Assembly: GCA_964480125.1 (NCBI GenBank)
Contig: CAYZNV010000002.1
Location: 4,984-68,983 of the forward strand
Origin: an uncultured archaeon
GTDB taxonomy: Archaea > Iainarchaeota > Iainarchaeia > Iainarchaeales > VGJJ01
Direction: 5' to 3'
DNA: 64,000 nt
The first letter of the stretch is position 1; every line of letters begins with the position of its first letter. The notes below the pieces were generated by a model that made no database searches, was not told the DNA's origin, and was given only the letters and a program-made list of their open reading frames with translations. The position numbers and the translations under genes are program-made. Below, one piece after another: positions 8,692-29,857 of the stretch.

Positions 8692-8746
8692 TCAGGTGCC
8701 AATTGCAATTGACACCTGTTCTCGGCCCAACCGCTCGAAAGCGGTT
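8692..8746. repeat. double-hairpin repeat element, copy A (tcaggtg..cacctgttctcgg..ccgctcgaaagcgg)
   Basis: Shares the conserved flanks TCAGGT/ACCTGTTCTCGG and a tcgaaa-loop second hairpin with the copies at 20744, 20802 and 29804. The stems differ but remain palindromic. It overlaps the stop of the minus-strand lipoprotein gene. Confidence 0.5.
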
Positions 8747-9305
8747 AAACACAATTCTGTCGAATCTGTTCTAACGTGTTTGTCACGGAAATGGAAATAT
8801 TTTCTGTAGTCGAAGCGGCATTCGTTACATATTCAGCCCCTAACGCATTCGTGAGCGCGATATCTTTTTGCACCAACAAAAATGAAGCATGAACGGATTC
8901 GCTGCGCGTTTGGGCGGAGCGTAATTGTTGCATGGCTAAATCCGCAGGCGTTCCGGCATTGCAGTTGAGTGTTTCGGCTTTGACGCGTTGCAATAAGGAG
9001 AATGCCCCGTTGATTTCTTCTTGCATGGTAATGGATTCAAGGCTTGCATCGAAATAAGCCAAGAGCGTGGATTTTCCTTCTCCCACTCCGCTTACTTTGG
9101 ATCGGAGTTTGATGAGGTTCACGCGATAGTCTTGTCTTCCTTGCTCGGTGGGAGGAGCGATTAACCCGAGTGGAACGTATTGTTCGCGCAAGGAAGCCAG
9201 TTCATTGGCGACGGCAAAACGGTCATTTCCCACGATACAGCCAGATAGCAGCAAGACGGCGAGCGCGAGCAGGATGGGAAATAGTCGCGGGATCATAGCA
9301 TGCAC
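8745..9305 (-). CDS. secreted lipoprotein-like hypothetical protein
   Basis: The N-terminal signal 'LLALAVLLLSGC' has a lipobox-like Cys. A TATA 'tttaaata' lies about 30 bp upstream. Confidence 0.4.
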   Translation of the reverse strand: MHAMIPRLFPILLALAVLLLSGCIVGNDRFAVANELASLREQYVPLGLIAPPTEQGRQDYRVNLIKLRSKVSGVGEGKSTLLAYFDASLESITMQEEINGAFSLLQRVKAETLNCNAGTPADLAMQQLRSAQTRSESVHASFLLVQKDIALTNALGAEYVTNAASTTENISISVTNTLEQIRQNCV

Positions 9306-9374
9306 CGGGTAAAAATCCTATTTAAATGCGTTCGGGAAGGGTTCCAAACAGGGGTGGAAATGGCAATTCACGCA

Positions 9375-11771
9375 CTATAATTCCACGGCAATCGTGCTAC
9401 CATATGTAATGGTTTCAATGGAGTGTGCCAATTTGATATCGCGTTCCAATACCTTGAGCGCAAGCGGCAACTGCGCGTGACGAATGGGTGCTTTCAATGA
9501 AAGTCCTTTTTCTTTCTTGGCTTTCCATAGCGCAGAGTTGGCTTGCATGAGGTCTTCGGCGGAAAACAAAACAGTGAATGCGTGTTCGCTTTCTGGATAG
9601 GAAGTGAAATGCACATCCATTTCGTGCAGCGCGGAATAAAGATACGAAGTGAAAATAGGGATAATGGGTGCGTAGAGTTGTAGGAGCGTGTCCAGGCAAT
9701 AGTGCAGCGTGTAAAGTGCTCCATTTTGTTCTTCGATAGAAAAGGTGCCTTGTTCGTTGTACGCGCGATTCTTTACTAATTCCAAATAATGCGAGGCGAA
9801 TGTTTCCCACAAAAAATAACGCAGCTGTGTGGAGGGAGTAAACACATCATAGCGCTCGAATCCTTCTCTGCAGGTTTGGATGAGTCTGGATAGCTCCATG
9901 AGCGCCCATTCATCTGCGGGAAGTAATTTGATTTGTCCTTCGGGGTTCTTGAATGAGGAAACGAAGCGCGCGACATTCCAGAATTTCGTCAGCGTCTTTC
10001 CCGCTCCTTCAATGCGTTCGAAGCTGCACATTAAATCGGTGCGTGCCAGGTTTCCTTCCATTCCCACCCATAATCGAAAGGGTTCCGCTCCGAATTTTTG
10101 GAGTATTTCAGCGGGATCGATGACATTTCCAAGGGACTTCGACATCTTGATTCCTTTTCCATCGAGAATGTGATTGTGAATGAATGCATTCTCGAACAAG
10201 GGCTTTCCGTGGAGCAAGTAGTGCTTGAGCAGTGAATAATACAACCACGTGCGCACGATTTCTTTTCCTTGCGGGCGTAGCGTGCAAGGAGTGTGTTTCA
10301 GGAAGAAGTCGTTTTTCCTTCCTTTTCCGAGCACATACGCGGCCGAATTAGAGGAGTCGAACCACGTGTCAAACACGCGTGTTTCTCCTTTCCATTCAGT
10401 CGAGTGACATTGCGGGCACTCTTCAATAGGGCAAGGGTCTTTCCAGGGTTGGTGGTATTTTCCTTTTGGGGGGACGAATGCATAATTGCACTTCCCACAA
10501 TACCAAATGGGGATTTCCGTTCCGTAGTATCGGCGTCGAGAAATAGGCCAATCAATTTTCACGTTCGCGATCCAGTCCGTGAGGATTTGTTTGGACTCAG
10601 GCGCATGGAATGTGAGTTGGTCCGCGATTTTTTTCATTTCTTCTTTCACGTGGAGCTGCTTCACATACAGTTCGGGCATGGAGATGAATTCAATTTGGTC
10701 TTTGCTACGCTCGCAGATGGGAACGGAGTGCATGATCTTCTTTTGCTGGTGCAACAACCCTTCTTCTTTTATTTTTTCGATTATTTTCTCGCGTGCTTCT
10801 TTTGTTTTCAATCCCTGCAAGAAACCCGCTTCTGCCGTCATGCGGCCCATTTCATCAATGCACCCTTGGGCTTCAATTCCTTGTTCAATCAAGAAGCGAA
10901 TGGCTTCCGTGTCCCCTGCGGAACGAGACATGTATGCGAGGCCCGTTCCAAAATTAGGGTCGGCCATCGTGTGAGGGATGATGGGGATTTCGAATCCATA
11001 TATTGGGACAATGGCTTTCTTGTCTTTGAGGTGCTGATAGCGTTCATCGGTTGGATTGTAGATGATAACGGCTGCCGTACACAAAAGCTCCGGTCGCGTC
11101 GTGGCGATAATGAGTTTTTCCTTCGTAGTGGTTTCGACAAAAATAATTTCATTCAGGAATGTTTCTTTTTCTTTTCTCTCAATCTCACTATCACTCAATG
11201 TCGTGCGACACCCCGGGCAATAGTTGTTGAGGCGCTTGGCTTCATACACGAGTCCTTTGTGCCAGAGATCGATGAACGTGTCCTGCGTAAGCGTTCGATA
11301 TTCTTTGGAATCTGTTTCATACATTTGCCCGAGTTCTTCGCCCACTTTCCATTCGTTGAATCCAATCCCTGCGTGGAAGAATGTTTGCAAGCTGTGCGTC
11401 CCAGCTTCTTTCAACATTTGCGCGCAGTATTCCAAGAATTTTTCGCGGGGCGTTTCGTGCAAGCGGATGTTGTATTTTTTTTCCGCGGCCATTTCAATTG
11501 GGAGACCATTGCGATCCATTCCAAGTGGAAAAATGACATTATGTCCAGTCATGCGCTTGTAGCGCGCGAACATGTCCATAATCACATACGTGGAAGCATG
11601 CCCGATATGCACGGGCGCGTTAATGTAAGGAGGTGGCGTGTCAATGGAGAAAATGGGCAATTGGGGGTTGTGTTTGAATTTGTAAGCCGATTCGTCTTTC
11701 CAGCGCTGAACGATGGGCAATTCCAATTCCTTGGACCAGCGCGTCTCAGTCAAACCAGGCATAATACCCAT
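9375..11771 (-). CDS. valS: valyl-tRNA synthetase (class I aaRS)
   Basis: 'PPPYINAPVHIGHA' is a HIGH-motif variant and 'KMSKSLGN' is the KMSKS motif. Size (798 aa) and the editing domain fit compact archaeal ValRS; LeuRS or IleRS is less likely at this size. Confidence 0.7.
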   Translation of the reverse strand: MGIMPGLTETRWSKELELPIVQRWKDESAYKFKHNPQLPIFSIDTPPPYINAPVHIGHASTYVIMDMFARYKRMTGHNVIFPLGMDRNGLPIEMAAEKKYNIRLHETPREKFLEYCAQMLKEAGTHSLQTFFHAGIGFNEWKVGEELGQMYETDSKEYRTLTQDTFIDLWHKGLVYEAKRLNNYCPGCRTTLSDSEIERKEKETFLNEIIFVETTTKEKLIIATTRPELLCTAAVIIYNPTDERYQHLKDKKAIVPIYGFEIPIIPHTMADPNFGTGLAYMSRSAGDTEAIRFLIEQGIEAQGCIDEMGRMTAEAGFLQGLKTKEAREKIIEKIKEEGLLHQQKKIMHSVPICERSKDQIEFISMPELYVKQLHVKEEMKKIADQLTFHAPESKQILTDWIANVKIDWPISRRRYYGTEIPIWYCGKCNYAFVPPKGKYHQPWKDPCPIEECPQCHSTEWKGETRVFDTWFDSSNSAAYVLGKGRKNDFFLKHTPCTLRPQGKEIVRTWLYYSLLKHYLLHGKPLFENAFIHNHILDGKGIKMSKSLGNVIDPAEILQKFGAEPFRLWVGMEGNLARTDLMCSFERIEGAGKTLTKFWNVARFVSSFKNPEGQIKLLPADEWALMELSRLIQTCREGFERYDVFTPSTQLRYFLWETFASHYLELVKNRAYNEQGTFSIEEQNGALYTLHYCLDTLLQLYAPIIPIFTSYLYSALHEMDVHFTSYPESEHAFTVLFSAEDLMQANSALWKAKKEKGLSLKAPIRHAQLPLALKVLERDIKLAHSIETITYGSTIAVEL

Positions 11772-11852
11772 AAAACGGCAAGAAAGAGGTTTTAAGGCTA
11801 GGGCTGCGAGTGGTGAATACTTATTTTTAAGTGAGAGTAAAGTATTGGTTAT

Positions 11853-11999
11853 ATGGCTTCAATAAATTTTCGAGAAGTAGTTGTCCCAATGGCATTGACC
11901 ATCATTATCATGGGGGCAGTTATCGCTTTTTTTTGGAGTATATTAACGGGCATTGGAATTGGACTCATCGGACTTACCGTTGCAATTGTAAATGGATGA
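11853..11999 (+). CDS. 48-aa hydrophobic micro-protein (two TM-like helices)
   Basis: MASINFREVVVPMALTIIIMGAVIAFFWSILTGIGIGLIGLTVAIVNG. Its stop lies 3 nt before the start of the next membrane-protein gene. It is below the ORF-track length cutoff. Confidence 0.25.
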   Translation: MASINFREVVVPMALTIIIMGAVIAFFWSILTGIGIGLIGLTVAIVNG

Positions 12000-12002
12000 T
12001 CT

Positions 12003-12521
12003 ATGACTACTACTTGGGCTAAAGAGTCTGCAAAGCTCAGATATGATAAAGTCATGAAGTTCACTACTATTTTTACTGTGACAATGCTTGGAGTATTGGC
12101 AGGAATTGTAACACAACATGATGAGGATATTTCTATAACTATTCTCAGAAATCAAAACAGAGATATGTTATTTGCAATAGCTGCCTTTACACTAATTATT
12201 GGATTAATCTTTTCATTATGGAAACTTAGAATGATTGAAAAAATAATGTCAGATGATAAATCCAACGAGTTCAACTCAAAATCAAAAAGACCAACCATCG
12301 GATTAAAGGAATTTTCCGGCTCACTGGTTAACGCAGCAGTTAACGGAATTGAGGGGCTGCAACCAGTAATTTTTCTAATAATTGTTGGACTGTTTTCATT
12401 CGTAATAAGTTTTTCTGGGATACCAAAAATATCCGATTCAGGAGTTTATGTAACAGTGACAGTACTAGCTGCACTTCTAGTTGGATTGGTTTCAGCTTAT
12501 CGACAGTTTGCTGATTATTAG
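12003..12521 (+). CDS. hypothetical membrane protein
   Basis: 172 aa with 3-4 TM helices. It sits in an AT-rich stretch with no recognisable motifs. Confidence 0.4.
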
Positions 12522-13699
12522 AACCCAAATATCCCTTTCTTTCCTTTCTTTGATTTCTTTGAAGTGGATTCAGTAGCAGTATCTTTCCCATGCAGCTCGG
12601 ATTGAAGTTCTTCCAATAGCTCTTTCTGGCGCGACGTGAGGTGAGTAGGAACGTCAATGCGCACGCGCACGAATTCATCCCCATATTCTTCGCTGTTGAG
12701 TTGCTTGATTCCTTTTTCGCGTAGTCGAAAAACTTTTCCATTCTGCGTGCCAGGAGGAATAGTCATCGTGACAGTCCCTCCCAAAACGGGAACGTCGACT
12801 TCTCCCCCCATTGCGGCGAGTGGAAATGAGATGCCTTGTTCCACATACACGTCCGCGCCATCGCGTTTGAATGTTTCATGAGGAGCAACGTGGATTACCA
12901 CATACAAGTCCCCTTGAGCCCCTCCTCCGGGAGTGAAATTTCCCTGATGGGGGACGCGCAAATGATTTCCCGTATCGATGCCCGCAGGGATTTTGATTTC
13001 AATGGAAGAGGTTTTACTCTGAGTCCCTTTTCCTTTGCAGCGCGTGCAGGGTTCTTTGATGATTTCTCCTTCTCCGCCGCATTTTGAACACGTCGCAGTC
13101 GTTTGAAATAATCCAAATGGCGTTCGTTGCGTGCGAGTTTCCATTCCTCTTCCCTTACAAGTAGGGCATTTTTCTTTTTTGCTTCCTTTTTCTGCACCCG
13201 TTCCGTCGCAGTGCTCACATGCGCGCAAGTGGGGGATGGAAATCGTCTTCGTAGCGCCAAAAGCCGCTTCTTCAAAGCTCAATTCCAGGTCATAGCGTAA
13301 ATGTTGGGCTTGGGAGGCACGTCGCGTGCGCGTTCCTCCTCCAAATTGCCCCCCAAATGCTTCGCGCAGCAAATCTTCCATTCCGGGGAAGCCGCTGGCG
13401 CCGCCGTTGAACATATCCGAGAAATCGAATCCTCCCATTCCACCGGGAAAACCCCCTGCTCCGCCGCCCATTCCGGATTTGAATGATTCCGAGCCGAATT
13501 GGTCGTATTGCGCGCGCTTGTTGGCATCAGAGAGAACGGAGTATGCCTCGTTGACTTCTTTGAACTTTTCAGTTGCCTCAGGGGCTTTGTTGATGTCCGG
13601 ATGCCATTTCTTGGCCATTTTCTTGTAGGCGGATTTGAGTTCGTCCGCGGAAGCATTCTTGCTCACCCCTAAAATGGAGTAATAGTCTTTTTCGGCCAT
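12518..13699 (-). CDS. dnaJ: chaperone DnaJ (Hsp40)
   Basis: J-domain '[11 protein letters not shown]', G/F-rich region and four CxxCxGxG zinc-finger repeats. The ORF track extends to 13750; Met18 is the likely start. Confidence 0.9.
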
Positions 13700-13825
13700 A
13701 GTGGAATCACGTGATAATGGAATAAAAATGCGGGCATGCGCGAAGCGCAAACACTCCCATTAGATTAGTAGCATCAAGCCGCAGTGAATGGGCGCGTGCG
13801 CTGAAGCACGGCCTTTCCATTGCGT

Positions 13826-15691: not shown

Positions 15692-15692
15692 G

Positions 15693-16664: not shown

Positions 16665-16684
16665 CTCCGGGCAAAAGCCCTATT

Positions 16685-17814: not shown

Positions 17815-19650
17815 TTGCTGCATATGATTTCTCGCGTCGTAATAGTGGCCCTCTTGGCCGCAGTAGGGAGTGCAGGCTGCTTGGACTTCATTTATACGGA
17901 TTCAAATGGGGGAGGGAATCAAGTCAATTGTGCTATTTTGTCCGATGCCCGTGCGCAGTCGCAGTGCTACCTCGACAAGGCCATTGCCGCCAACGACCCA
18001 GGGATTTGCTCAAGCGTTAGCGTGCAAGAGTTCACCGACACCTGTTATGAGCGGTTAGGGCAAAATACCAAGCGACTCGATGTCTGCGTCAAGGTCATTG
18101 CTATCGCAAAAGAGAATGCGTGCGTGGACGCATTAGGCGCCTCAAATCTCACTGAGATCGCATGCGAGTCCATTGCATCCCCTGATGAGCAAGTGGATTG
18201 TTATCGCCAACTCGCCCGTTCACAAAAGCAAACCGCCTATTGTGATCGCACGGGCATGCAGAAAGACACATGCCTCGCGGAAGTTGCAATCGCCGCGAAA
18301 TATCCAGATATCTGCGATCGCATTTCAGATGAAGGGGTGCGCGACACATGTATTGTTGACGCGGCCGTTGCTGCGCGCGACGGGAGTAGTTGCACTCGGA
18401 TTGTAGACCCTGCCAAGCGCGACCAATGCCATTCTCAAATCGCAGTTCTGCAACGAAACTCCAGCCTCTGCGTGAAAGTGGATGCCATTGCGGAACGAAC
18501 GGCATGCTACGCACAGGTAACAGAAGCGATTGGCAATGATTCCTCATGCGTGAATAGTTCGGATTTGTCCGCGCAAGATGCCTGTTATCTCAGCCAGGCC
18601 AAATCGGAGAAGAAAGTGGATCTCTGCACCAAAATTGCTAGCCAGCAGCGTCGAGATGATTGCTATTCCTACTTGGCGGGAAATTTTTCGGACCCCAGCC
18701 TGTGCGATTCCATCCTCATTGAGAGCAATCGCATTCCATGCATTGAGGGGGCTGCAGCCTCGACAGCGGCAGTAGAATCATGCAATGCCTTATCCGGAGT
18801 GTTGCGCGATAGCTGCATTACTAGCAACGCACTCACGCGCAAAGACCCTTCGCTTTGTTCTCCGCTGCGCGTGATTACTTCAGAAAAGAATTACCGTGAT
18901 GCCTGCTATCACGATGTTTCCATCGTGGCGCTGGCGCCAGAGAGTTGTGTGAATATTGCAGGAGAAACACTGCGCGACGACTGTTATTTCAACACGGCCT
19001 CGGACATGAACGCCAGCCCCTGGTGCGAGCGCATTGCAGGAGCGGAAACAAAGGATGATTGCTTCCGCGTGATTGGATCCACTATTGGAGATGTCAGCGT
19101 GTGCGAGCAAATCGTGGAAGAAGAAACCAAGTATGCGTGCATCGCAGCAATTGCACAGAAGGCAAAACAGCCCAGGTTGTGCGCTAGCATCAAAGACGCC
19201 GGAGTTCGCAATGATTGTTATTTCGATGTGGCAGTAGAAGTGGACCAAAAAGGGATTTGTGAAAAAATAAACCTGAGTTCCACCAAGTATGCATGCTATA
19301 AGGAAGTTGCGATTGCGCTGAACGACTGGGTGTACTGCAATAATATTCCCGTTGGGCAGTTGCTCTTGCACAACACTTGCCTTGAACCCATTGCCCATGC
19401 CACACGCAACATGGAAGCTTGCAACGCGATGTTTGGTAGTGCCGCAAAGGGACAATGTTATGGAGTGGTAGCAGCGCGCACGAATAATATTTCTTTTTGC
19501 CAGAACATTCCACTGGCACTAGTGGAAGATGCCAATCAGGCGCACGAGACGCGCGACTATTGTTATTCCGCGCTCGCGGGAGAAACAAATGACGGGAGCT
19601 TCTGCGCATCCATTTATTCGTATCCCATCAAATCCAATTGTGGACCGTGA
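17815..19650 (+). CDS. Cys-rich tandem-repeat lipoprotein (about 22 repeats of C-x13-C-x11)
   Basis: Signal peptide with lipobox 'GSAGC'. The repeats fit the pattern RDxCYxxxAxxxxDxxxCxx(I/V) across the whole 611 aa. Confidence 0.5.
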   Translation: MLHMISRVVIVALLAAVGSAGCLDFIYTDSNGGGNQVNCAILSDARAQSQCYLDKAIAANDPGICSSVSVQEFTDTCYERLGQNTKRLDVCVKVIAIAKENACVDALGASNLTEIACESIASPDEQVDCYRQLARSQKQTAYCDRTGMQKDTCLAEVAIAAKYPDICDRISDEGVRDTCIVDAAVAARDGSSCTRIVDPAKRDQCHSQIAVLQRNSSLCVKVDAIAERTACYAQVTEAIGNDSSCVNSSDLSAQDACYLSQAKSEKKVDLCTKIASQQRRDDCYSYLAGNFSDPSLCDSILIESNRIPCIEGAAASTAAVESCNALSGVLRDSCITSNALTRKDPSLCSPLRVITSEKNYRDACYHDVSIVALAPESCVNIAGETLRDDCYFNTASDMNASPWCERIAGAETKDDCFRVIGSTIGDVSVCEQIVEEETKYACIAAIAQKAKQPRLCASIKDAGVRNDCYFDVAVEVDQKGICEKINLSSTKYACYKEVAIALNDWVYCNNIPVGQLLLHNTCLEPIAHATRNMEACNAMFGSAAKGQCYGVVAARTNNISFCQNIPLALVEDANQAHETRDYCYSALAGETNDGSFCASIYSYPIKSNCGP

Positions 19651-19660
19651 GGATGATAGC

Positions 19661-19966
19661 ATGATGACTACGCGCAGAAAGAAACCCCTGACGGCATGGA
19701 ATGCATTGAATTCAATTTCTTTTTCAGAAGTCATTCATTTCCAAGTGCGCAAGATCAAGCAAGATTGGAGGATTCCCCTGCTATGGATAGTGGAGCTCAT
19801 CTTGGCCATTGTTTTGGCAGGGAGCATTGCGATCTATTTGGATCCTGAAATCAACGTGGTCCCTTTCCCCTGGAATGCGGTGGCATTCGCAATAATAGCA
19901 GGGATTTCGGTCTACTTGTATGGATTTACTCGCCCATTCCGGATAGCCCGGAGAATCCAAAAATAG
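19661..19966 (+). CDS. small membrane protein
   Basis: The ORF track starts at 19529 inside the previous gene; 'MMTTRRKK' at 19661 is preferred. Two TM helices. Confidence 0.3.
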   Translation: MMTTRRKKPLTAWNALNSISFSEVIHFQVRKIKQDWRIPLLWIVELILAIVLAGSIAIYLDPEINVVPFPWNAVAFAIIAGISVYLYGFTRPFRIARRIQK

Positions 19967-20060
19967 GCATTAATGGCCATTAAACCCTCAAAAACGAGAA
20001 AAGAACACAAAAATGAGATTCGCGGCCATTGACCGCGAATAAAAAATATCAGCAGTAGAA

Positions 20061-20177
20061 CTAGCGGCGGCGCGTAGCTTTTCTGCGCGTCGTGCGGGTC
20101 GTCTTGCGAGCCGTAGAGCGGCGAGCGGTTCGGCGCTTTGTTGTTCTTTTTGCTGCTGCTTTTCTTCTTGCTGCCAT
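20061..20177 (-). CDS. 38-aa Arg/Lys-rich basic micro-protein (MAARRKAAAKRTTKRRTARRSTARKTTRTTRRKATRRR)
   Basis: GGAGG lies 9 nt upstream of the ATG and a TATA 'atttaaatag' about 55 nt upstream. The stop is followed by a hairpin tcgcggtcaatggccgcga plus a T-tract. It sits in a GC-rich island in the 298-bp gap. Confidence 0.35.
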   Translation of the reverse strand: MAARRKAAAKRTTKRRTARRSTARKTTRTTRRKATRRR

Positions 20178-20261
20178 AATTTTTTTCCTCCATTGGAAAA
20201 GTTTTTTCTAAGAGCGAGAAATGAACTGTGCTATTTAAATGTTTGCTACATGCGTTATAGC

Positions 20262-20726
20262 ATGAAAATGACGCAATCAACGAAAAAATTACACAAAAAA
20301 GTGCACAAACATGCGCGTGTGATGGCGTTTGGAACGTTTGATATTTTGCATCCAGGACATTTGCATTACTTGAATGGTGCAAAAAAGTTTGGAGATGAAT
20401 TGATTGTTGTCATTGCGCGCGATTCGACCGTAAAAAAGTTGAAAGGAAAACTTCCCACCAACAATGAAAAGACGCGCAAGCAAATTATTTCTGCGATGCG
20501 CTGTGTCGACAATGCAGTGATAGGAAATGAAGGCGTCATCTATGATATTGTTGCAGAAGTCAAGCCGGATATTATTGCGCTGGGATACGATCAGCATGTC
20601 GACACGGAAAAATTGGAACGCGAGTTAAAGAAAAGAGAATTAAAATGCAAAGTTATCCGCTTGAAACCATTCCATGCAAAAAAATTCAAATCCACTATTA
20701 TCAAGGAAAAGATTCGCAAGCGATAA
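20262..20726 (+). CDS. ribL: archaeal FAD synthase RibL (CTP-dependent FMN adenylyltransferase, cytidylyltransferase fold)
   Basis: 'VMAFGTFDILHPGHLHYL' is the (H/T)xGH nucleotidyltransferase motif. 154 aa. The TATA 'ctatttaaat' at 20231-20240 fits a leaderless start at 20262; the ORF track begins at 20193. Confidence 0.7.
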   Translation: MKMTQSTKKLHKKVHKHARVMAFGTFDILHPGHLHYLNGAKKFGDELIVVIARDSTVKKLKGKLPTNNEKTRKQIISAMRCVDNAVIGNEGVIYDIVAEVKPDIIALGYDQHVDTEKLERELKKRELKCKVIRLKPFHAKKFKSTIIKEKIRKR

Positions 20727-20743
20727 AGAAAAAATTCATCAAA

Positions 20744-20795
20744 TCAGGTATTGCTCGCAATACCTGTTCTCGAACCCTTGAGAAGGGTTCAACCA
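20744..20795. repeat. double-hairpin repeat element, copy B1
   Basis: tcaggtattgctcgcaatacctgttctcga + aacccttgagaagggtt. Same architecture as copies A and C. Confidence 0.5.
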
Positions 20796-20801
20796 AGGAA
20801 G

Positions 20802-20875
20802 TCAGGTGCTGCGCTCAGCACCTGTCCTCGGCGCCACCGGTCGAAACACGGTGAGTGACCGCCGCTCGAAAGCGG
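20802..20875. repeat. double-hairpin repeat element, copy B2, plus an extra tcgaaa-loop hairpin abutting the kae1 stop
   Basis: tcaggtgctgcgctcagcacctgtcctcggcgccaccggtcgaaacacggtga, then gccgctcgaaagcggc ending 1 nt before the kae1 stop codon. Confidence 0.5.
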
Positions 20876-21850
20876 CTACCAGAACACATCCACTTGGTCC
20901 GTGCGATAGCGTTGATCCACGTTCGTTTCTGAGAATGATTGTTTTCTTCCCGCGCGGTGCTCAATCATTCCCTGCCACGCAATCATTGCCCCATTATCCA
21001 TGGCATATTCGCGGGGAACGATGAATAAATCCGCTCCTCTTTCGATGCATAGTTTTTCTAGCATAGCTGCGAGAGCTTTGCTCGCCGCCACGCCCCCTGT
21101 AACAAGGATTTCTTTCTTTTCCGTATGTGCCAACGCGCGCTCGGCGACTTCACACACCATGGCAAAAGAGGTGTGCATGAGCGAGTAACACAAATCGATC
21201 TCATCCACTTTCCCTATTTTCTTCTCTGCTTCGGTGAGGAGTCCTGCAAAGACCAGGTCCATTCCCTTGACCGAATATGGAAGTGGAATGAGTTGCTTTC
21301 CTTGGAAATAGCGTTGGTCGATGATAGGCCCTGCGGGAAATCCCAATCCGAGTTTCCTTCCAAACGTATCAAGGACATTCCCCACTCCCATGTCCAGCGT
21401 CTCTCCGAATACGCGGTATTTTCCATTTTCTAATCCAATGATTTGCGTGTTCGCGCCAGAAGTGTAGACGACAACAGGGTCTCGCGCGCGTGTCTTTTTC
21501 TTTCCAATCTCCACGTGTGCCACGCAGTGGTTGACTCCTAGCAAGGGCTTGCGATACTTTGAAGCGAGATAGCGTGCCGTAATGGCTCCCACGCGCAGGC
21601 AAGGACCCAACCCCGGCCCCTGGGCAAAGCTAATGGTGTCAATATCTCGCATAGAAATTTTTGCTTGTGCGAGTGCTTGCTGTAATACTTTTTTCCCGTT
21701 TGCGAGATGGAAGTCAGCTGCCAATCGGGGGTGGATTCCCGCATCCGTATTGGTGTAGGCCATTTTGGCGTTAGCGAGGACGTTGCATTTTTCATCCACA
21801 ATGCCAATTCCGAACGTGTGCGCGGTCGATTCGATTCCAAGTGCGTACAT
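20876..21850 (-). CDS. kae1: Kae1 tRNA N6-threonylcarbamoyladenosine synthase (KEOPS catalytic subunit)
   Basis: 'MYALGIESTAHTFGIGIV' and the HxxH/ASKH-fold motifs are present. 324 aa. Confidence 0.9.
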   Translation of the reverse strand: MYALGIESTAHTFGIGIVDEKCNVLANAKMAYTNTDAGIHPRLAADFHLANGKKVLQQALAQAKISMRDIDTISFAQGPGLGPCLRVGAITARYLASKYRKPLLGVNHCVAHVEIGKKKTRARDPVVVYTSGANTQIIGLENGKYRVFGETLDMGVGNVLDTFGRKLGLGFPAGPIIDQRYFQGKQLIPLPYSVKGMDLVFAGLLTEAEKKIGKVDEIDLCYSLMHTSFAMVCEVAERALAHTEKKEILVTGGVAASKALAAMLEKLCIERGADLFIVPREYAMDNGAMIAWQGMIEHRAGRKQSFSETNVDQRYRTDQVDVFW

Positions 21851-22595: not shown

Positions 22596-22614
22596 ATCAC
22601 ATCACCTGTTTCCC

Positions 22615-22923: not shown

Positions 22924-22937
22924 TTTCCCCCTTTGTT

Positions 22938-24170: not shown

Positions 24171-24208
24171 GGTCGCTCAGGAAATGAGCGGATGAGGAGA
24201 GGAGAAGT

Positions 24209-24835
24209 ATGGTGGACATCATGGATTATTTTCAGATCATATTGAAACCCGACGCGACGATGCAGCGCCTGGTAAAAAAGCCAGACATGAAGGCAGCAGA
24301 TCAGGCCTATCTCTTATACGGCGGAATCATTGGATTGGTTTTCGGCCTGGTGGTTGCGTTGTTGGCATCGGTTGTTTCCGCTATCGCATCGGTCGCAGGA
24401 GAAGGAGTCGTTGCGCTCATCGCAGGACTCGGTTTCTTGGCCGTCATCATTTTCCCCATTTTGTTTGCAATCGTTGGATTAGTAGGGGCAAAAATCTCCT
24501 ATTGGATTTTTCACCAAGTGATGGCGCTATTGGGAGGAAAAGGAACATATGAGCAGTCATTTTGGATTGGATCCCAGTTGTTATGGCCCATATTGTTCGC
24601 ACAGATTATTGTTTGGATTCTGGGCGTCATCCCAATCATTGGAGCGCTAATTTCGATTGCGTGGTTTTTGTATTCAGTCTATCTCTTCGTAGTGTTGTTT
24701 TCCATCGTGCATAAATTTAGCAAATTGCGCGCATTAGTCGGATACATTGCTGGAATTATTGTGATTCTCATTATCGTGGTGATCATTTTCGCGATAATCG
24801 GAGGAGCAATATTCAGCGGAATTGGATACAACTAA
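24209..24835 (+). CDS. polytopic membrane protein (Yip1-like?)
   Basis: 208 aa with five TM helices. The family is tentative. Confidence 0.3.
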   Translation: MVDIMDYFQIILKPDATMQRLVKKPDMKAADQAYLLYGGIIGLVFGLVVALLASVVSAIASVAGEGVVALIAGLGFLAVIIFPILFAIVGLVGAKISYWIFHQVMALLGGKGTYEQSFWIGSQLLWPILFAQIIVWILGVIPIIGALISIAWFLYSVYLFVVLFSIVHKFSKLRALVGYIAGIIVILIIVVIIFAIIGGAIFSGIGYN

Positions 24836-24843
24836 ATAGTGGC

Positions 24844-24886
24844 ACGGCACCGCGTGGTGCCGTTATTTCTTTTTTTTATTTTTTCT
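24844..24886 (+). terminator. hairpin (8-bp stem ACGGCACC/GGTGCCGT) followed by a T-tract
   Basis: It directly follows the stop at 24835. 'tatttcttttttttattttttct' is an archaeal-type oligo-T terminator. Confidence 0.5.
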
Positions 24887-24890
24887 AAAA

Positions 24891-26318
24891 CTAGAGCGCA
24901 ATCCCATATCCCGCTAAGCGCCAAGCAGCGGTCTCGCGGCGGGAAATGGCAATCTTTTGTCCTTTCTCGATGGTCATTTTGCTTTTCAACGCCAAATCAA
25001 TTCGTCCTTTTTTGACGTTCAATACTTCTCCCACAATGGTGTTGGTTCCAATCGTAAGAACCATGAGCTCATGCACGTGAGGGAATGGGAGTTTGTTTCC
25101 CAGCAAGCGATCTAATTCGAAGAAGTCAATCGCCAATTTGTCAGTGGGCGCAGGCAATGTTCCGGGAGCACAGAGAATTTGTCCTTTGAATTTGTCCATC
25201 GACGTGATGCCAGGATCCAGTTTCGTTCCTGCGGCGATGAGTCCGCGTGGGAATGCTTTTTCGAGTTCTCCATCGGCGTTGCGCACGGATGCGATCTCTA
25301 TGTGAATGGGCTTTCCGTCGATTCCAGGAGTGAGTTCGACTTTTTGTCCTTTCACGAGCGTTCCTTGGGAAATACTTCCTCCCAATACGCCGCCGAGCAT
25401 TTTTTCTAGTTCCGTTCCGGGCTTATTCACATCGAAGCTGCGTGAGATATACATCTTGAATGGTTTTTCCACTTCGCCTTTTGGAGTGGGAATGTGCTCT
25501 TGGATGGTTTGGATGACGGCGTCCACATTCGCGTTGAAGTTAGCAGAAACGGGAATGATGGGAGCACTCGCATAACCATAATCGGCGAGGAATTTTTTGA
25601 TTTCGTTATATGATTTGAGCGCATTTTCTTTTGTGACTAAATCCACTTTGTTCTGCACCACAATGACATTCTTGATCCCGCCGATCTTCAATGCCATTAA
25701 GTGTTCCGCCGTTCGTGGCTGAGGGCATGTTTCGTTCGCAGCGATGACGAGCAATGCCCCATCCATTAATGCGGCGCCGGAAAGCATCGTGGTCATCAGC
25801 GTTTCGTGGCCAGGCGCATCAATGAAAGAGACTTTGCGTAAAATCTTTCCTTGCTTTCCTTCTTTTTCTTTGGAGGAACCAAATCGTGCAACGCCTTCGA
25901 GGCCGGGATATTCATAGAATAGGGCATCCGCGTAACCCAGGCGAATGGAAATTCCTCGCTTCAATTCTTCGGAGTGAGTATCAGTCCACTTTCCAGTAAG
26001 TGCTTTGGTGAGAGACGTCTTGCCATGATCCACATGCCCCGTCATGCCGATGTTGATTTCGGCTTGCAAAACATGCGACTTGGACGATTTTGAATCGTGT
26101 TTGGTTTCGTGTGCGGTTTCGGCAGGCACGGCCTTCTCATGTTTGGCAGCCGCTTCTGTTTTGGTTTCGGTTTTTGCTTTTTTAGCACGCGTCTTTGTTG
26201 GTTTTTCCACAACAGCAAGAGAAGTCGCTTCTGCTGTTTCAGGTGTAACGGCAACAACTTCTTCTTTTGTTTTTTTAGTGCGTGGAGCCATAATAGAAAA
26301 TCCCCTTAGTGGGGGCAA
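24891..26318 (-). CDS. eif2g: translation initiation factor aIF2 gamma with a Lys/Ala/Glu/Thr-rich N-terminal extension
   Basis: 'GHVDHGKTSLTKALTG', 'DAPGHE' and 'NKVD' are G-domain motifs and domains II/III follow. About 85 aa of low-complexity sequence precede the canonical 'EINIGMTGHV' start region. Confidence 0.85.
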   Translation of the reverse strand: MPPLRGFSIMAPRTKKTKEEVVAVTPETAEATSLAVVEKPTKTRAKKAKTETKTEAAAKHEKAVPAETAHETKHDSKSSKSHVLQAEINIGMTGHVDHGKTSLTKALTGKWTDTHSEELKRGISIRLGYADALFYEYPGLEGVARFGSSKEKEGKQGKILRKVSFIDAPGHETLMTTMLSGAALMDGALLVIAANETCPQPRTAEHLMALKIGGIKNVIVVQNKVDLVTKENALKSYNEIKKFLADYGYASAPIIPVSANFNANVDAVIQTIQEHIPTPKGEVEKPFKMYISRSFDVNKPGTELEKMLGGVLGGSISQGTLVKGQKVELTPGIDGKPIHIEIASVRNADGELEKAFPRGLIAAGTKLDPGITSMDKFKGQILCAPGTLPAPTDKLAIDFFELDRLLGNKLPFPHVHELMVLTIGTNTIVGEVLNVKKGRIDLALKSKMTIEKGQKIAISRRETAAWRLAGYGIAL

Positions 26319-26345
26319 TAACTACTCGAGGTAGGGAAAGGCACT

Positions 26346-26753
26346 TTAAGCCTTCGCCTTTTCCTCTTTCTTTTCTTCCTTGGGCTTGCCTAAAGTGGCT
26401 TCCAAGTCCATATTTCCGTAGTGCGTCAACTTGACATTCAATTGGTGGATGTCGTTTGCGATGACGTTTCCGCGCATGGGACGTTTCTTGCGTTCGCCTT
26501 TTTCTCCTTTCTTGAAGCCGATTCCGGGATATACGAGGAGTTTCTTTCTCGCGGTGCCGGGAAAACGAGCCATCATGGGGGTTCCAGTCTTGTCGCTTCC
26601 GCCAGTCAAGACTCCCTTATAGCCGTCCAATCCCAACTCGGAAAGGTCCACTTCATCTCCCAGTTTCTTGCCCTGAAAAGGCATGGTTTCGACCGCTTTT
26701 GCGTACGCGCGTCGTGTCTTGGGATCGGATATTACGATATTCATTGTCATCAT
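26346..26753 (-). CDS. rps6e: ribosomal protein S6e
   Basis: 'MNIVISDPKTRRAYAK' is the S6e N-terminus. 135 aa. Confidence 0.85.
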   Translation of the reverse strand: MMTMNIVISDPKTRRAYAKAVETMPFQGKKLGDEVDLSELGLDGYKGVLTGGSDKTGTPMMARFPGTARKKLLVYPGIGFKKGEKGERKKRPMRGNVIANDIHQLNVKLTHYGNMDLEATLGKPKEEKKEEKAKA

Positions 26754-28567
26754 TCCTCCTGTATATTTGTCAGCGATGACTGTAAGTTGGTGATTTTTTG
26801 TAAGAGCTCTTTTTCTTCTTCCGAGAGCTTGGATTCAATTTTCTTGAGAAGCGTTAGCATTCCGGGTGTTGGATTCGTGTAAAGCGTGTCGTTTTCAAAC
26901 ACATTTCTTCCCACGTTTCCTCCATCAATCGAGACGGCGACTTCGTCATTCTTTTCGGCGAGATCAATATTTTCTTTTTCTTGCTGGATTTGCGCGACTT
27001 TGCCGATGACTTCACCTTGCTTGTTCATCAACTCGGTGCCGACGCGCAGTCTTCCTTCCACGACGCGCACGCCGATAACCGCGGGCTTGGTATTGCGAAA
27101 CGTGTGATTAGGCAAGAAGTGTAATTCGCACGGGAAGATGGCCTTCTCCATGAGTGCTTTGTTCTTGTTTTCTTCCGTTTGCTTGACCCACTGCTGGTAT
27201 TGCTCCGTTAGCGCATACACAATGTTGCCCGAAATGATGTGCACTTGTTGCAGTTCCGCGTCTTTCTTGACTGCATCGATGATGGGCGCATTGAATCCCA
27301 GAATGCATCCAGCATAGATGTCTTTTGCCTTCAGCGCGGCCGCTTCTAATACATCGCGGCGCGTGATTTCTCCTACATCCGCGCGCTTGATTTTGATTTG
27401 ATGAGAATGCAAGAGTTGAATGAGCGCTTCTAAACTTCCAAGTGTGTCGGCTTTCACAATGATTCCAATCGCGTCGGATTCAATCTTGATACGATTCACT
27501 TCATTCTGAATCAGCGTGGCCTCATTGCCTGTTTTTTCTTCGAGAATGGGGCTTCCCGCAATGGCGTCATCCAATCCAGGCGCGGCGATCTTGATTCCCG
27601 TTGCAGCGTGGGCTTCTTTCATGGAGATGAATTTTTCTGCGACGCGAATGTCTGTCATCGTGTTGGGACGAAGCAACGCGCGTACTTTGGTGCGAATGAC
27701 CCCATTCTTTCCTGCAAGCACAATCGTATCTCCTGTCTCTAAACTTCCATCGTACAAAATCACATCAATCGTCTTTCCGAATCCGCGTTCGTCGCGCACT
27801 TCCAAAACAGTTCCCTTTGCCGGCCCTTCGACAGCGAAATTGAGTTTTTGTTCCAGGAATTTTTGAGCCAATCCTGCGAGGAACATCAATAATTCGGGCA
27901 TCCCTTCTCCTGTGTGAGAGGAAATGGGAATCATGGCGATTTCTTTTGTAGGGTCTTTCACGCGATCGAAGCGTTCGCTCTGGAATCCGGTTTCAAATAT
28001 TTGTCCAACAATCGTGTAGAGTCGTTCATCCAATTTTGCTTTTGCTTTTTCTGTTTGTTGGGAGAGATTGCCCAAAAAAGAACCGGCTTTTGATTCATAG
28101 TCATCGATTAAATCTAATTTCGTGAGTGCAATGGCGAATGGGACTTTATAGTTGCGCAAAATGGTAATGGCTTCTTTGGTTTGGGCTTGTAGTCCTTTAT
28201 TGACATCCACTACGAGCACAGCTAAATCCGCAATGCTGCTTCCGCGCTCGCGTAAGTTGGTAAATGCTTCATGTCCGGGCGTGTCGATGAATAGGAGTCC
28301 AGGGATATTGAGATTGAATCCGAATTTGTGAATCAGGGGACCGGCAATCTCTTGCACGAGTTTGATGGGAATTTCGGTTGCGCCGATGTGTTGCGTAATG
28401 CGCCCGGCTTCTTTTTCGACAACATTAGTTGAGCGAATCTTGTCCAAAAGAGAAGTCTTTCCCGCGTCGACATGTCCTACTACTGCGATAATGGGGGTGC
28501 GAATAGCTTTGGTCATACCATCAATTTCCCGTAACGAGTCATGCAGCCAGAAACCTTTTGGAAGCAA
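26750..28567 (-). CDS. infB: translation initiation factor aIF5B (IF2 homolog)
   Basis: G domain 'GHVDAGKTSLLD', 'DTPGHEAF' and 'NKLD'. 605 aa. Conserved infB-rps6e-eif2g order. Confidence 0.85.
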   Translation of the reverse strand: MLPKGFWLHDSLREIDGMTKAIRTPIIAVVGHVDAGKTSLLDKIRSTNVVEKEAGRITQHIGATEIPIKLVQEIAGPLIHKFGFNLNIPGLLFIDTPGHEAFTNLRERGSSIADLAVLVVDVNKGLQAQTKEAITILRNYKVPFAIALTKLDLIDDYESKAGSFLGNLSQQTEKAKAKLDERLYTIVGQIFETGFQSERFDRVKDPTKEIAMIPISSHTGEGMPELLMFLAGLAQKFLEQKLNFAVEGPAKGTVLEVRDERGFGKTIDVILYDGSLETGDTIVLAGKNGVIRTKVRALLRPNTMTDIRVAEKFISMKEAHAATGIKIAAPGLDDAIAGSPILEEKTGNEATLIQNEVNRIKIESDAIGIIVKADTLGSLEALIQLLHSHQIKIKRADVGEITRRDVLEAAALKAKDIYAGCILGFNAPIIDAVKKDAELQQVHIISGNIVYALTEQYQQWVKQTEENKNKALMEKAIFPCELHFLPNHTFRNTKPAVIGVRVVEGRLRVGTELMNKQGEVIGKVAQIQQEKENIDLAEKNDEVAVSIDGGNVGRNVFENDTLYTNPTPGMLTLLKKIESKLSEEEKELLQKITNLQSSLTNIQEE

Positions 28568-28674
28568 AAAGCTTTGCCAAAAAAGGCTTTGGGCCCAGCG
28601 ACATGAGTATAGAAGAAAAAGTCCTTGAAAAGGGTTAAAAATCGCCCTCTTGGAAGGGAGAAACAGCCAAAATG

Positions 28675-29274
28675 CTAGTTTTCGCTGGTTTTGCGCTTTT
28701 CTTGAGCCAGACGAGACGCTACAGGACCAAATTGCCCATGGTATTTGGTGTCGGGCTTCTTGTTATAGGGCGTTTCAGCTGGAGAGGTCATTTTGTAGAA
28801 GCACAGCTGGCAAACGCGTTGGTAGGGGCGTAATAACAAGGGTTGGTTGCCGATGTTCTGCATTTCAAGGGTGATCTGTCCCTCAAAACCGGGGTCGATG
28901 AATCCTGCGGTGGCGTGGATGATGAGTCCTAATCTTCCCAGGGAAGAGCGCCCTTCTAGTCTTGCCACCAAATCGGTTGGAACCTTTACCGCTTCGAGTG
29001 TGCTTCCCAGGATGAATTCCCCAGGGTGTAAAACAAACCCTTCTTTTTCATCAATCATCACACGCCGCATACGTGGAGGAATTTTTTCGCTCAAATCAAT
29101 AATGCGCATGGCGTGATTGTCAAACAAAAGCACTTCCGGAGCCAAGCGCAAATCAATCGATGAAGGGCCTAGCTGTAAATCCAAATCAATGGGGTTTTTG
29201 TCCGTTGGAACATAGACTGCTCCTTGGGCCACCATTTCTTTGAGATCACGATCCGAGAGAAGCATATGAATCAT
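28675..29274 (-). CDS. dcd: dCTP deaminase
   Basis: 199 aa with a dUTPase-like fold. The N-terminus 'MLLSDRDLKEM' is dCTP-deaminase-like. Confidence 0.75.
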   Translation of the reverse strand: MIHMLLSDRDLKEMVAQGAVYVPTDKNPIDLDLQLGPSSIDLRLAPEVLLFDNHAMRIIDLSEKIPPRMRRVMIDEKEGFVLHPGEFILGSTLEAVKVPTDLVARLEGRSSLGRLGLIIHATAGFIDPGFEGQITLEMQNIGNQPLLLRPYQRVCQLCFYKMTSPAETPYNKKPDTKYHGQFGPVASRLAQEKRKTSEN

Positions 29275-29321
29275 TCGTCCAGGGGGGTATTAAAACGCAA
29301 TCCAAAAATTACCAAAAATCC

Positions 29322-29747
29322 TTAGTGTAATCCCGTGCTACCAAAACCGCCTTCTCCTCGAAGGGTGGAATCCAATTCTTGCACTTCTTCGATGGAAGGA
29401 TGCAAGATAGGTTGAATCAGCAATTGGGCGATCTTTTTTCCTTTTTCAATGGTGTAAGGGGAAACGCCAAAATTGCAAATCATAATCATCAATTCCCCAC
29501 GATAGGTTTCATCAATCACGCCAGCAAACGTGTGCAAGTGGAATTTCACGGCCATCCCACTCTTATCCCATACCAATCCCACGTGCCCAGGAGGAATGGC
29601 TAATGCAATACCAGTCTTTACCGCGTGCTTTTGATTGGGTTGCAGGGTAATCGTTTCATTTGCATAGATGTCCATTCCCGCGTCCCCGGGCAGAGCGAAT
29701 TTGGGAGTGATGGCATCTGGAGAAAGTTTTTTGATGAGTAGACGCAT
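29322..29747 (-). CDS. dut: dUTP diphosphatase (dUTPase fold)
   Basis: 141 aa. 'GDAGMDIYA' and 'GVIDETYRGEL' are dUTPase motifs. Confidence 0.7.
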   Translation of the reverse strand: MRLLIKKLSPDAITPKFALPGDAGMDIYANETITLQPNQKHAVKTGIALAIPPGHVGLVWDKSGMAVKFHLHTFAGVIDETYRGELMIMICNFGVSPYTIEKGKKIAQLLIQPILHPSIEEVQELDSTLRGEGGFGSTGLH

Positions 29748-29803
29748 AAAGAAAAATGGACTTTAATCGTACTAAAAGCTTTGCATGAAAAAAAGAATAA
29801 ATA

Positions 29804-29857
29804 TCAGGTATCGCATTGCGATACCTGTTCTCGGCGCCACCGGTCGAAACACGGTGA
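29804..29857. repeat. double-hairpin repeat element, copy C
   Basis: tcaggtatcgcattgcgatacctgttctcggcgccaccggtcgaaacacggtga. It ends 1 nt before the ndk stop codon. A T-tract follows on the minus strand (29781-29803). Confidence 0.55.

Follow-up and report, generated by a model that had tools for sequence, protein, structure and literature searches.

Modular hairpin repeats behind genes in Candidatus Iainarchaeum-like DPANN archaea

Four copies of a short, structured repeat stand next to stop codons in a 64-kb stretch of DNA from an uncultured archaeon (the whole stretch is called the window below), which raises the question of what kind of element this is and whether it does anything for the genes that it follows. 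The first-pass annotation left three options: a structured terminator, a REP- or MITE-like mobile repeat, or a recognition module for a protein or RNase. The four copies that it listed do exist, with TCAGGT starting exactly at positions 8692, 20744, 20802 and 29804 (copies 1–4); ACCTGTYCTCG occurs four times in the window, always on the plus strand and with 0 mismatches, and CAGGT-N6-26-ACCTG is found four times against 0.40 expected (≥4 in 1 of 100 shuffles). The copies make up three sites in the 64 kb, spaced by 12 kb and 9 kb, with two copies directly in tandem. When they are compared, the conserved flanks and the stem interiors that vary yet remain self-complementary are seen as described, and folding predicts two hairpins for every copy, with z-scores of −3.0 to −5.4. 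The double-hairpin architecture thus holds overall; the exception is copy 2 (20744), which we reject as a full unit because its “second hairpin” is a different type of module, one also found 3′ of stem 1 in related genomes.

The elements had been read on the plus strand, which is the wrong one. All three sites abut minus-strand genes at their stop codons (8745–8747, 20876–20878 and 29859–29861, belonging to genes for a predicted secreted protein, Kae1 and Ndk, respectively), and, read on that strand, each site starts at the stop codon or ≤3 nt from it, so that all copies are sense-oriented to the gene in question (Table 1). A second hairpin ending within 1 nt of the stop had been claimed for three genes. 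At the secreted-protein ORF (8745–9305, previously labeled a lipoprotein gene; its product has no Pfam match), the stem of hairpin A takes in the TAA stop codon; at ndk the gap is 2 nt, and at kae1 it is an extra third hairpin that touches the stop, its first base being the G of the TAG, and not the second hairpin of the copy at 20802. The T-tracts noted beyond the elements are present, on the minus strand: T7 and T6 behind the ndk and kae1 sites and TTTATT after copy 1, the last of these in the loop of a third hairpin and ending 22 nt short of the bud32 ATG.

Table 1. Features of the three window sites, with sense-strand RNA sequences
Feature	Position	Strand	Sequence and remarks
Copy 1 hairpin A	8727..8748	-	UUAACCGCU-UUCG-AGCGGUUGG
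Copy 1 conserved linker	8719..8726	-	..GCCGAGAA; first base of stem 1 is the C of CGAGAAC
Copy 1 stem 1	8693..8718	-	CAGGUGUCAAUUGCAAUUGGCACCUG
Third hairpin, downstream of copy 1	8662..8687	-	AAUCCAU...AUGGAUU
Solo hairpin-A module at kae1	20861..20876	-	GCCGCU-UUCG-AGCGGC; 13.9-bit partial covariance-model match
Copy 3 hairpin A	20835..20853	-	CACCG-U-GU-UUCG-AC-CGGUG; identical to copy 4 hairpin A
Copy 3 linker	20825..20834	-	GCGC-CGAGGA
Copy 3 stem 1	20803..20824	-	CAGGUGCUG-AGCG-CAGCACCUG
“C”-type hairpin	20772..20790	-	GAACCCUU-CUC-AAGGGUUC; 3′ of copy 3, also serves as 5′ hairpin of copy 2
Copy 2, linker GAGAA and stem 1	20745..20771	-	CAGGUAUUGCGAGCAAUACCUG; incomplete unit, tandem partner of copy 3
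U6 tract	20729..20734	-	Follows the block of copies 3 and 2 on the kae1 strand
Copy 4 hairpin A	29838..29856	-	Starts 2 nt past the ndk TAA stop (29859–29861)
Copy 4 linker	29828..29837	-	GCGC-CGAGAA
Copy 4 stem 1	29805..29827	-	CAGGUAUCGC-AAU-GCGAUACCUG; terminator-like in terminator scan
U-rich tail of copy 4	29783..29804	-	AUAUUUAUUCUUUUUUU; U7 at 29788–29794

On the minus strand, the unit (∼55–90 nt) is a multi-hairpin one and runs from hairpin A through a CGAGAAC linker to stem 1, GAU and U-rich sequence. Hairpin A combines a GC-rich stem with a UUUCGR loop (i.e., UUUCG followed by A or G) that is able to close as a UUCG tetraloop, and a spacer of 2–4 nt separates it from the linker; stem 1 has a conserved base (A-U / A.A / CAGGU:ACCUG) and an interior that is free but self-complementary; and the GAU is often followed by a third hairpin of the AACCUUU...AAAGGUU type along with the U-rich sequence. 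Among 18 family members, 92.7% of the pairing cells can pair, compared with 73.3% in shuffles (0 of 500 as high) and ≤36.5% in slid controls, and in 12 of 17 pairs both sides have changed, compensatory changes that back the earlier suggestion of selection on structure for both hairpins. The copy 3 linker carries an A-to-G substitution, which has a matching U-to-C substitution 3′ of stem 1. One pair in stem 1 of copy 1 is a U.G wobble on the minus strand and a C/A mismatch on the plus strand; the tally of wobble pairs versus A.C mismatches (∼4 sense, ∼5 antisense) gives no strand signal. The modules recombine and form tandem arrays: hairpin A can be identical between copies whose stem 1 differs, the “C”-type hairpin recurs at other family sites in related genomes, and in CP064981.1 the unit as a whole is repeated in a tandem array of 85 bp.

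The window organism is a small DPANN archaeon, a genus-level relative of Candidatus Iainarchaeum (CP064981.1). Scanning relatives with a covariance model, as had been proposed, finds further copies: 12 matches at nine sites in the ∼57 kb covered of the 1.05-Mb CP064981.1 genome (24 kb of which was picked for holding matches), plus a single match in a third lineage and another in a near relative. Members that are independent of model building score 52.9 bits (L015:6955), 43.9 bits (L014:2963), 47.7 and 45.8 bits (two copies in L031), 46.6 bits (L037) and 28.1 bits (L044), and no match to the model is seen in ∼50 kb of sequence taken from three relatives or at the outgroup loci L032, L034 and L035. 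Breaks in public short-read contigs fall inside elements, suggesting that there are more copies than we have counted. Rfam, whose families include ribozymes, C/D and H/ACA sRNAs, riboswitches and SECIS elements, returns 0 matches over the whole window at gathering thresholds; over 20700–20900, its only matches are at chance level (E ≥ 0.06) and far below gathering.

None of the three window sites is occupied in CP064981.1, where the kae1-ribL gap is 0 nt, the secreted-protein ortholog lies 14 nt from bud32 and the ndk-dut content differs from that of the window. The near relative (L037) also has copy 1, and in L033 a decayed homolog is found 3′ of kae1. The window and L037 copies of what is one insertion differ at six positions, of which three or four break pairs and one improves a pair, next to 28 nt that are identical; this suggests that constraint on individual copies is weak. 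Presence and absence vary between close relatives, among which copies are gained and lost. The extra copies and the empty orthologous sites together support the dispersed-repeat part of the original proposal.

Elsewhere, sites follow ftsZ, the thermosome gene, tRNA-Ser, tRNA-Leu and SRP RNA. Elements stand exactly at the mature 3′ ends at the tRNA and SRP RNA sites, and hairpin A begins on the nucleotide after TAA or TAG at five of the eight protein-gene sites. In all, 11 of 14 sites are sense-oriented and adjacent to a gene end, the exceptions being the L031 array (which is antisense, with a gene end on one side and the L7Ae promoter on the other), L014:4861 (5′ of tRNA-Leu) and L044:20222 (inside a divergent promoter region). 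Orientation therefore follows the upstream gene at these 11 sites and is not, as had been stated, the same on the plus strand whatever the flanking genes; in L014, where neighboring copies alternate strands within 4 kb, it still correlates with the direction of transcription. A position behind stops, tRNAs and SRP RNA with U-rich sequence downstream also fits the suggestion of a 3′-end role.

Hairpin-plus-T sites number 45 in 20 kb, compared with 25.1 ± 4.9 expected, and other window genes end in simple hairpins with T-tracts. Like bacterial intrinsic (Rho-independent) terminators, the elements place a GC-containing hairpin and a U-rich tract right behind a gene, and stem 1 of copy 4, which passes the terminator consensus scan, and several CP064981.1 copies conform to the simple consensus. 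Where the bacterial type has a U-rich run 0–2 nt past a stable stem, the ftsZ copy has a U7 run 5 nt past it, and the thermosome copy a U4 run 2 nt past it. Unlike this family, however, bacterial terminators do not share a conserved linker and stem foot, and in several family copies the U-tract lies 5–12 nt from the stem or is absent (neither copy 1 nor several of those in CP064981.1 have an adjacent U-run). The terminators of four model archaea are U-tracts, the one feature that archaeal RNA polymerase is known to need, and work without a hairpin (PMC8716108), and a termination role for the hairpins is thus not expected a priori.

We lean, on slightly better than even grounds, towards a family of small, modular structured intergenic repeats that is specific to Ca. 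Iainarchaeum-like DPANN archaea, resembles REP/BIME or BOX elements and is transcribed into 3′ UTRs, where its hairpins would act as terminators or stabilizers, a function that we infer. The unit would form the last part of the upstream transcript, and its stable hairpins and the U-tract that follows would define and protect the RNA 3′ end, whether as an aid to termination, as a block to 3′-to-5′ decay or as insulation from the next promoter. New copies may come from insertion or duplication events that leave no target-site duplication, and would persist mainly at the ends of transcription units, presumably because a compact genome tolerates them there.

It is possible, though on balance unlikely, that the family is purely selfish, non-autonomous mobile DNA (a MITE, or an IS200/IS605-derived PATE- or REP-like element) which an enzyme from another part of the genome mobilizes in trans, recognizing hairpins and linker as single-stranded DNA, with the gene-end and sense bias reflecting target preference plus purifying selection instead of a host function. 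This would account for filled versus empty orthologous sites, the breaking of assemblies at elements, the lack of a strand signal from wobble pairs, the non-compensated decay between orthologous copies and the three copies in antisense or non-3′ contexts. The check for target-site duplications that had been called for finds no direct repeat at the boundaries when filled and empty ndk-dut and secreted-protein ORF/bud32 junctions are compared, as with IS200/IS605-type transposition. No mobilizing enzyme was found: Pfam detects no transposase, integrase or Y1_Tnp domain in 41 ORFs (the right half of the window, one ORF beside copy 1 and the ORFs adjoining the CP064981.1 copies), and the precomputed Pfam labels of syntenic loci L001, L031 and L036 include none either. 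There are also no terminal inverted repeats such as a MITE shares with its parent IS, since hairpin A and stem 1, which form the ends, are unrelated in sequence and the inverted repeats are internal to each hairpin; this and the lack of a target-site duplication at the two junctions compared speak against a MITE. On their 5′ sides, hairpin A and stem 1 have no target tetranucleotide in common, whether GTAG, the type that adjoins the imperfect palindromes of REP/RAYT systems, or another (the conserved flank is CGAGAAC). Moreover, stem interiors that are wholly different next to shared modules are unlike recent copy-paste from one master element, and the 11:3 sense bias and exact abutment of stop codons require an extra assumption.

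Distinctly doubtful is a variant in which the unit, a modular RNA/DNA hairpin, is a self-propagating “3′-end cassette”: it would place a hairpin-plus-U terminator of bacterial style, at times along with a new TATA box, right behind archaeal genes and thereby divide operons into separate transcription units. Copy 1 would be an example: in relatives, the operon spacer that separates the secreted-protein ORF from bud32 is 14 nt long, and here ∼91 nt of hairpins take its place, the third hairpin with its TTTATT included. The invariant UUUCG loop and CGAGAAC linker, possibly as a pseudoknot, would be the site recognized by a lineage-specific protein that both spreads the element and processes its RNA. 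We regard as improbable that the family is at bottom a module for an RNA-binding protein or endoribonuclease, in which loop, linker and CAGGU/ACCUG stem base form a binding site or a loop-linker pseudoknot directing 3′-end cleavage or maturation of mRNAs, tRNAs and SRP RNA. Conservation is indeed concentrated in these three parts while other stem positions are free, elements lie exactly at mature tRNA and SRP RNA 3′ ends, and between the UUUCG loop and CGAGA 97.5% of cells are complementary, a complementarity kept in the diverged L033 variant (AUUUCG/CGAAGU). The loop-linker pairing is without covariation, however, because its columns hardly vary, and a pseudoknot would leave ∼4 nt to cross a 7-bp stem and 0 nt between the helices, which we estimate to be sterically tight. 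Close relatives lack the element at orthologous genes, so that it is not required for maturing those transcripts. Finally, a DNA-level site whose intergenic position is incidental, be it an uptake-type signal or a cruciform or hairpin to which a protein of chromatin, recombination or the topoisomerase kind binds, is very improbable: the stems are perfect DNA palindromes with mismatches that show no RNA-strand bias, and bacterial REP/BIME elements bind gyrase and IHF, but a duplex-binding site needs no self-complementary interior of variable length, orientation tracks transcription even where L014 copies alternate strands, and three sites in 64 kb is a low density.

REP/BIME elements (repetitive extragenic palindromes) are among the closest known systems: they are short, extragenic, dispersed imperfect palindromes with a conserved foot and compensating stem changes, lie behind genes and are transcribed into 3′ UTRs, occur as mosaics and in tandem clusters, vary from one related strain to another and lack target-site duplications. 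REP elements are mobilized by RAYT (Y1 HUH) transposases, the genes for which are typically flanked by REPs, whereas no RAYT gene was found in the 41 ORFs scanned; the present family is archaeal and of low copy density, lacks the GTAG-type tetranucleotide, has two or three different hairpins and a conserved single-stranded linker instead of one palindrome, and is strongly biased to the sense strand of the upstream gene; in a BIME, the paired REPs are inverted relative to each other. Pneumococcal BOX (boxA-boxB-boxC), ERIC and Correia/NEMIS repeats are similarly intergenic, transcribed and built from a few hairpin-forming boxes in varied combinations and numbers, and effects on mRNA stability have been reported for some such families; they belong to another domain of life, have no sequence relationship to the units described here, and the latter are smaller and without terminal inverted repeats. 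Haloarchaeal IS200/IS605-derived PATEs, which insert strand-specifically without target duplication, are likewise archaeal, small and hairpin-bearing, but here the element is much shorter, with two dissimilar hairpins, no conserved target tetranucleotide and no TnpA/TnpB gene or remnant found. Integron attC sites also conserve structure more than sequence and lie directly 3′ of an ORF in fixed orientation; they have one long bulged stem, imperfect and with extrahelical bases, that bears the R″ (RYYYAAC) and R′ (GTTRRRY) cores, instead of two separate hairpins, the neighbors here are syntenic housekeeping genes, tRNAs and SRP RNA and not cassettes, no integrase was found, and the only conserved GTT block (GTTCTCG, plus strand) lacks the RRR of the GTTRRRY core, on which grounds attC is rejected. 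A CRISPR array is rejected as well, since the window copies are kilobases apart or directly in tandem and the CP064981.1 array has no unique spacers.

The family is previously undescribed and appears to be an archaeal equivalent of the REP/BIME elements known from bacteria. Structured REP-like repeat families are little characterized in archaea and, to our knowledge, none has been described in DPANN lineages, whose genomes of ∼1 Mb make every intergenic base costly. The repeat motif accounts for the fragmentation of short-read assemblies of these organisms at these points, and the covariance model provides both a handle for annotation and a marker for the Ca. Iainarchaeum-like clade. The repeat shows that rapid rewiring of operon boundaries between close relatives is possible and, standing exactly at transcript ends, could be used to test whether some archaea employ RNA hairpins in 3′-end formation.

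The four copies of the repeat reported by the first-pass annotation (copies 1–4) are found where it placed them, with TCAGGT starting at positions 8692, 20744, 20802, and 29804, and the motif ACCTGTYCTCG occurs four times in the window, on the plus strand each time and with no mismatches. The pattern CAGGT-N(6–26)-ACCTG is likewise present four times, compared with 0.40 expected (four or more in 1 of 100 shuffles). ORF maps show that every site in the window adjoins the stop codon of a minus-strand gene, that is, all copies are sense to the gene that each follows, so the earlier statement that they keep one orientation whatever the flanking genes misreads the data. Read on the sense strand, a unit consists of the stop codon, hairpin A, a 2–4 nt spacer, a CGAGAAC linker, stem 1 (CAGGU[variable]ACCUG), GAU, and a U-rich sequence; the loop of hairpin A is UUUCG(A/G) and can close as a UUCG tetraloop. 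The proposal that the second hairpin ends within 1 nt of three stop codons needs amending: the kae1 stop is touched by an extra, solo hairpin A, the ndk stop is 2 nt away, and the stop of the third gene lies inside the hairpin. The protein encoded by this third gene, called a lipoprotein earlier, is predicted to be secreted and has no Pfam match.

Coordinates of genes next to the repeat copies and of simple gene-end hairpins in the window
Feature	Position	Strand	Remark
Predicted secreted protein, 186 aa	8745-9305	-	No Pfam match; stop within hairpin A of copy 1
kae1	20876-21850	-	Stop touches the solo hairpin; next come copies 3 and 2, arranged in tandem
Solo hairpin A	20861-20876		
ndk	29859-30368	-	Stop 2 nt ahead of hairpin A of copy 4
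Simple GC hairpin + T-run	24836-24890		Gene end, unrelated to the repeat
Simple GC hairpin + T-run	39125-39215		Gene end, unrelated to the repeat
Simple GC hairpin + T-run	36438-36535		Gene end, unrelated to the repeat
Simple GC hairpin + T-run	7827-8011		Gene end, unrelated to the repeat
Simple GC hairpin + T-run	31325-31337		Gene end, unrelated to the repeat

RNA folding returned two hairpins per copy on either strand (z scores of -3.0 to -5.4). Copy 1 is more stable on the minus strand (-30.2 kcal/mol versus -21.4 on the plus strand), and a C/A mismatch on its plus strand is a U·G wobble on the minus strand; counts of G·U versus A·C mismatches gave no signal of strand preference (∼4 versus 5). 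Selection on structure, as suggested from the four copies, is borne out by an 18-row alignment in which 92.7% of cells make standard pairs, compared with 73.3% in column shuffles (none of 500 as high) and at most 36.5% in slid controls; fitting of the alignment to the model favors structure, and the slid controls carry the same bias. Both sides have changed in 12 of the 17 pairs of this alignment, among them pairs of the stem foot, with CGGGU/ACCCG or UGGGU/ACCCA in place of CAGGU/ACCUG. RNAalifold pointed to complementarity between the UUUCG loop and the CGAGA linker, and 97.5% of cells can pair; there is no loop-linker covariation, as these columns hardly vary. A loop-linker pseudoknot would, by our own estimate, be sterically tight.

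The host is an archaeon by its gene content (S15, Bud32, Kae1, Spt4, Rpb7, S24e, S27e, S6e, aIF2, L7Ae, S28e, and L24e), with 92% (Kae1) and 72% (Bud32) identity to Ca. Iainarchaeum archaeon CP064981.1, a complete DPANN MAG of 1.05 Mb. The window also encodes a cysteine-rich, internally repetitive secreted protein of 611 aa (17815-19650, plus strand) that is without a Pfam label in any relative; 3′ of its gene are 542 nt with no assigned ORF in our rough map (19651-20192), where a gene of ∼100 aa is called in syntenic relatives. A cluster at 39813-46097, with a KaiC-like ATPase, two T2SSF-like proteins, a T2SSE-like ATPase, and unlabelled ORFs, is likely to be a locus for an archaeal type IV pilus or an archaellum-like structure.

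Outside the window, a strict pattern scan of one genome per species (185,579 species) gave 12 matches, 3 of them with the palindrome; all 3 are in CP064981.1, behind tRNA-Ser, ftsZ, and thermosome genes. The other nine lack the palindromic interior, are about as many as estimated beforehand, and were set aside as chance, as were all 12 matches in metagenomes, which also lack that interior, and 6 in viral contigs, none of which was confirmed by the covariance model. This model, built from seven copies, detected none in the window beyond those already described. Among the relatives, further copies did turn up: six more diverged ones in the three CP064981.1 loci, including one directly 3′ of the SRP RNA gene (Rfam match at L015:6687-6962) and one directly 3′ of tRNA-Leu, with three tandem copies in another locus; one in L037, from an organism closely related to that of the window (46.6 bits); and one in L044, from a third lineage (28.1 bits). 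A decayed homologue 3′ of kae1 in a fourth genome (L033; linker CCGAAGUUAGGGUAUC, loop AUUUCGUA) was missed by the model and retains the loop-linker complementarity (AUUUCG/CGAAGU). At L033:4832-4928, in this 88% relative, a 14-nt direct repeat, GAAGTTAGGGTATC, flanks a hairpin-A-like module on both sides, which suggests an internal partial duplication.

Comparison of syntenic loci reveals gain and loss. CP064981.1 has 0 nt between kae1 and the convergent ribL and 14 nt between the secreted-protein ortholog and bud32, and the content of its ndk-dut spacer differs from that of the window; the window's three sites are therefore all empty there. Three further relatives (Kae1 80–82% identical) have overlapping genes or short spacers at these places, with no model match in ∼50 kb. 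Copy 1 is common to the window and L037 (Bud32 89% identical), with six differences, of which three or four disrupt base pairs and one strengthens a base pair, and the 28 nt downstream of it are identical. At the copy 1 site, ∼91 nt stand in place of the 14-nt spacer, whose GTGA may be a ribosome-binding site; in the ∼91-nt block, TTTATT ends 22 nt ahead of the bud32 ATG, a spacing that would fit the TATA box of a leaderless mRNA. In CP064981.1, the spacer between ndk and dut has features of its own. The final ∼22 nt of ndk (GAAATGCACACGTTCGGAAAGTAG) recur ∼85 nt downstream (L031:1667-1750), enclosing a segment that contains two other hairpins, GGATTACGGTAAGTAATCC and AACCTTTTTGCAAAAGGTT, and looks like a different type of element, inserted with a long duplication; the spacer also contains a basic ORF of 87 aa with no Pfam match (L031:1781-2044, minus strand) that is missing in the window and in an outgroup locus.

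The units are built from modules. Hairpin A and the spacer are the same in copies 3 and 4, the interiors of stem 1 differ, and the ftsZ and thermosome copies relate to each other in this way too; in the tRNA-Ser and SRP RNA copies, hairpins A differ at one base and the stem 1 interiors differ. In many copies from CP064981.1 and L044, a hairpin of the type AACCUUU...AAAGGUU stands 3′ of stem 1; this type also stands 3′ of copy 3, where it is at the same time the 5′ hairpin of copy 2, and a CP064981.1 array comprises at least three units of 85 bp. Eleven sites are sense at a gene end, versus three exceptions: the array, flanked by a gene end and the L7Ae promoter and antisense to each of them (the corresponding position of the window bears just a simple hairpin); a copy 5′ of tRNA-Leu in CP064981.1; and the L044 copy, in a divergent promoter region. 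The tRNA-Leu(CAA) gene lies between two inverted copies (L014:4720-4929), hairpin A adjoining the tRNA in each, and the closest TATA-like sequence precedes the mature 5′ end by ∼75–100 nt. Upstream of L7Ae, ∼85 nt from a TATA-like box (TTATAAAT) to the start codon are conserved in the window (31232-31320, minus strand) and in CP064981.1 (L031:219-303); AUGA/UGA-type motifs are present, and this region may be an autoregulatory K-turn leader.

Several readings of the repeat could be dismissed. A hammerhead would need the CUGANGA...GAAA core, which is missing, CUGAU being present; by eye, there is no GA·AG tandem opposite a 3-nt bulge for a K-turn or K-loop (with AUN in place of GA in the 3′ flank), natural pairing closes a tetraloop rather than the 7-nt T-loop of a T-arm mimic, and the 3-nt bulges of a BHB splice motif are missing. 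A SECIS element or other recoding signal is ruled out by the copies located behind tRNAs and SRP RNA, attC by a core mismatch, and paired DNA uptake sequences because a palindromic spacer would be unnecessary. Rfam returned no matches at gathering thresholds (chance-level ones only, around copies 2 and 3), and for REP/RAYT, MITE, attC, CRISPR, and every Rfam family, membership either conflicts with tested features or could not be assigned. As to mobility, the comparison of filled and empty sites at ndk-dut and at the junction of the secreted-protein gene with bud32 shows no direct repeat at the insertion edges that would mark a target-site duplication; no conserved insertion target is seen upstream of hairpin A except the frequent TAA/TAG stop codons; and no transposase was found by Pfam in 41 ORFs (neighboring ORFs and half of the window) or among the precomputed Pfam labels of the syntenic loci. 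Publicly available short-read contigs of this organism terminate within the elements, the expected effect of a dispersed repeat on assembly. The best fit is a lineage-specific, REP/BIME-like mosaic repeat family residing in 3′ UTRs, the function and mobility of which we infer.

The gene ends of the window provide a context for such a family. Many other genes end with a simple hairpin that has a T-run behind it (e.g., ACGGCACCGCGTGGTGCCGT+TATTTCTTTTTTTT), and a hairpin-plus-T consensus scan over 20 kb gave 45 sites, including stem 1 of copy 4, compared with 25.1 ± 4.9 in shuffles. The terminators of four model archaea consist of U-tracts and do not require a hairpin (PMC8716108). Bacterial-style terminator architecture is unusual in archaea, for which U-tracts alone are regarded as sufficient. 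The repeat probably serves as a 3′-end hairpin module, or is tolerated for acting as one.
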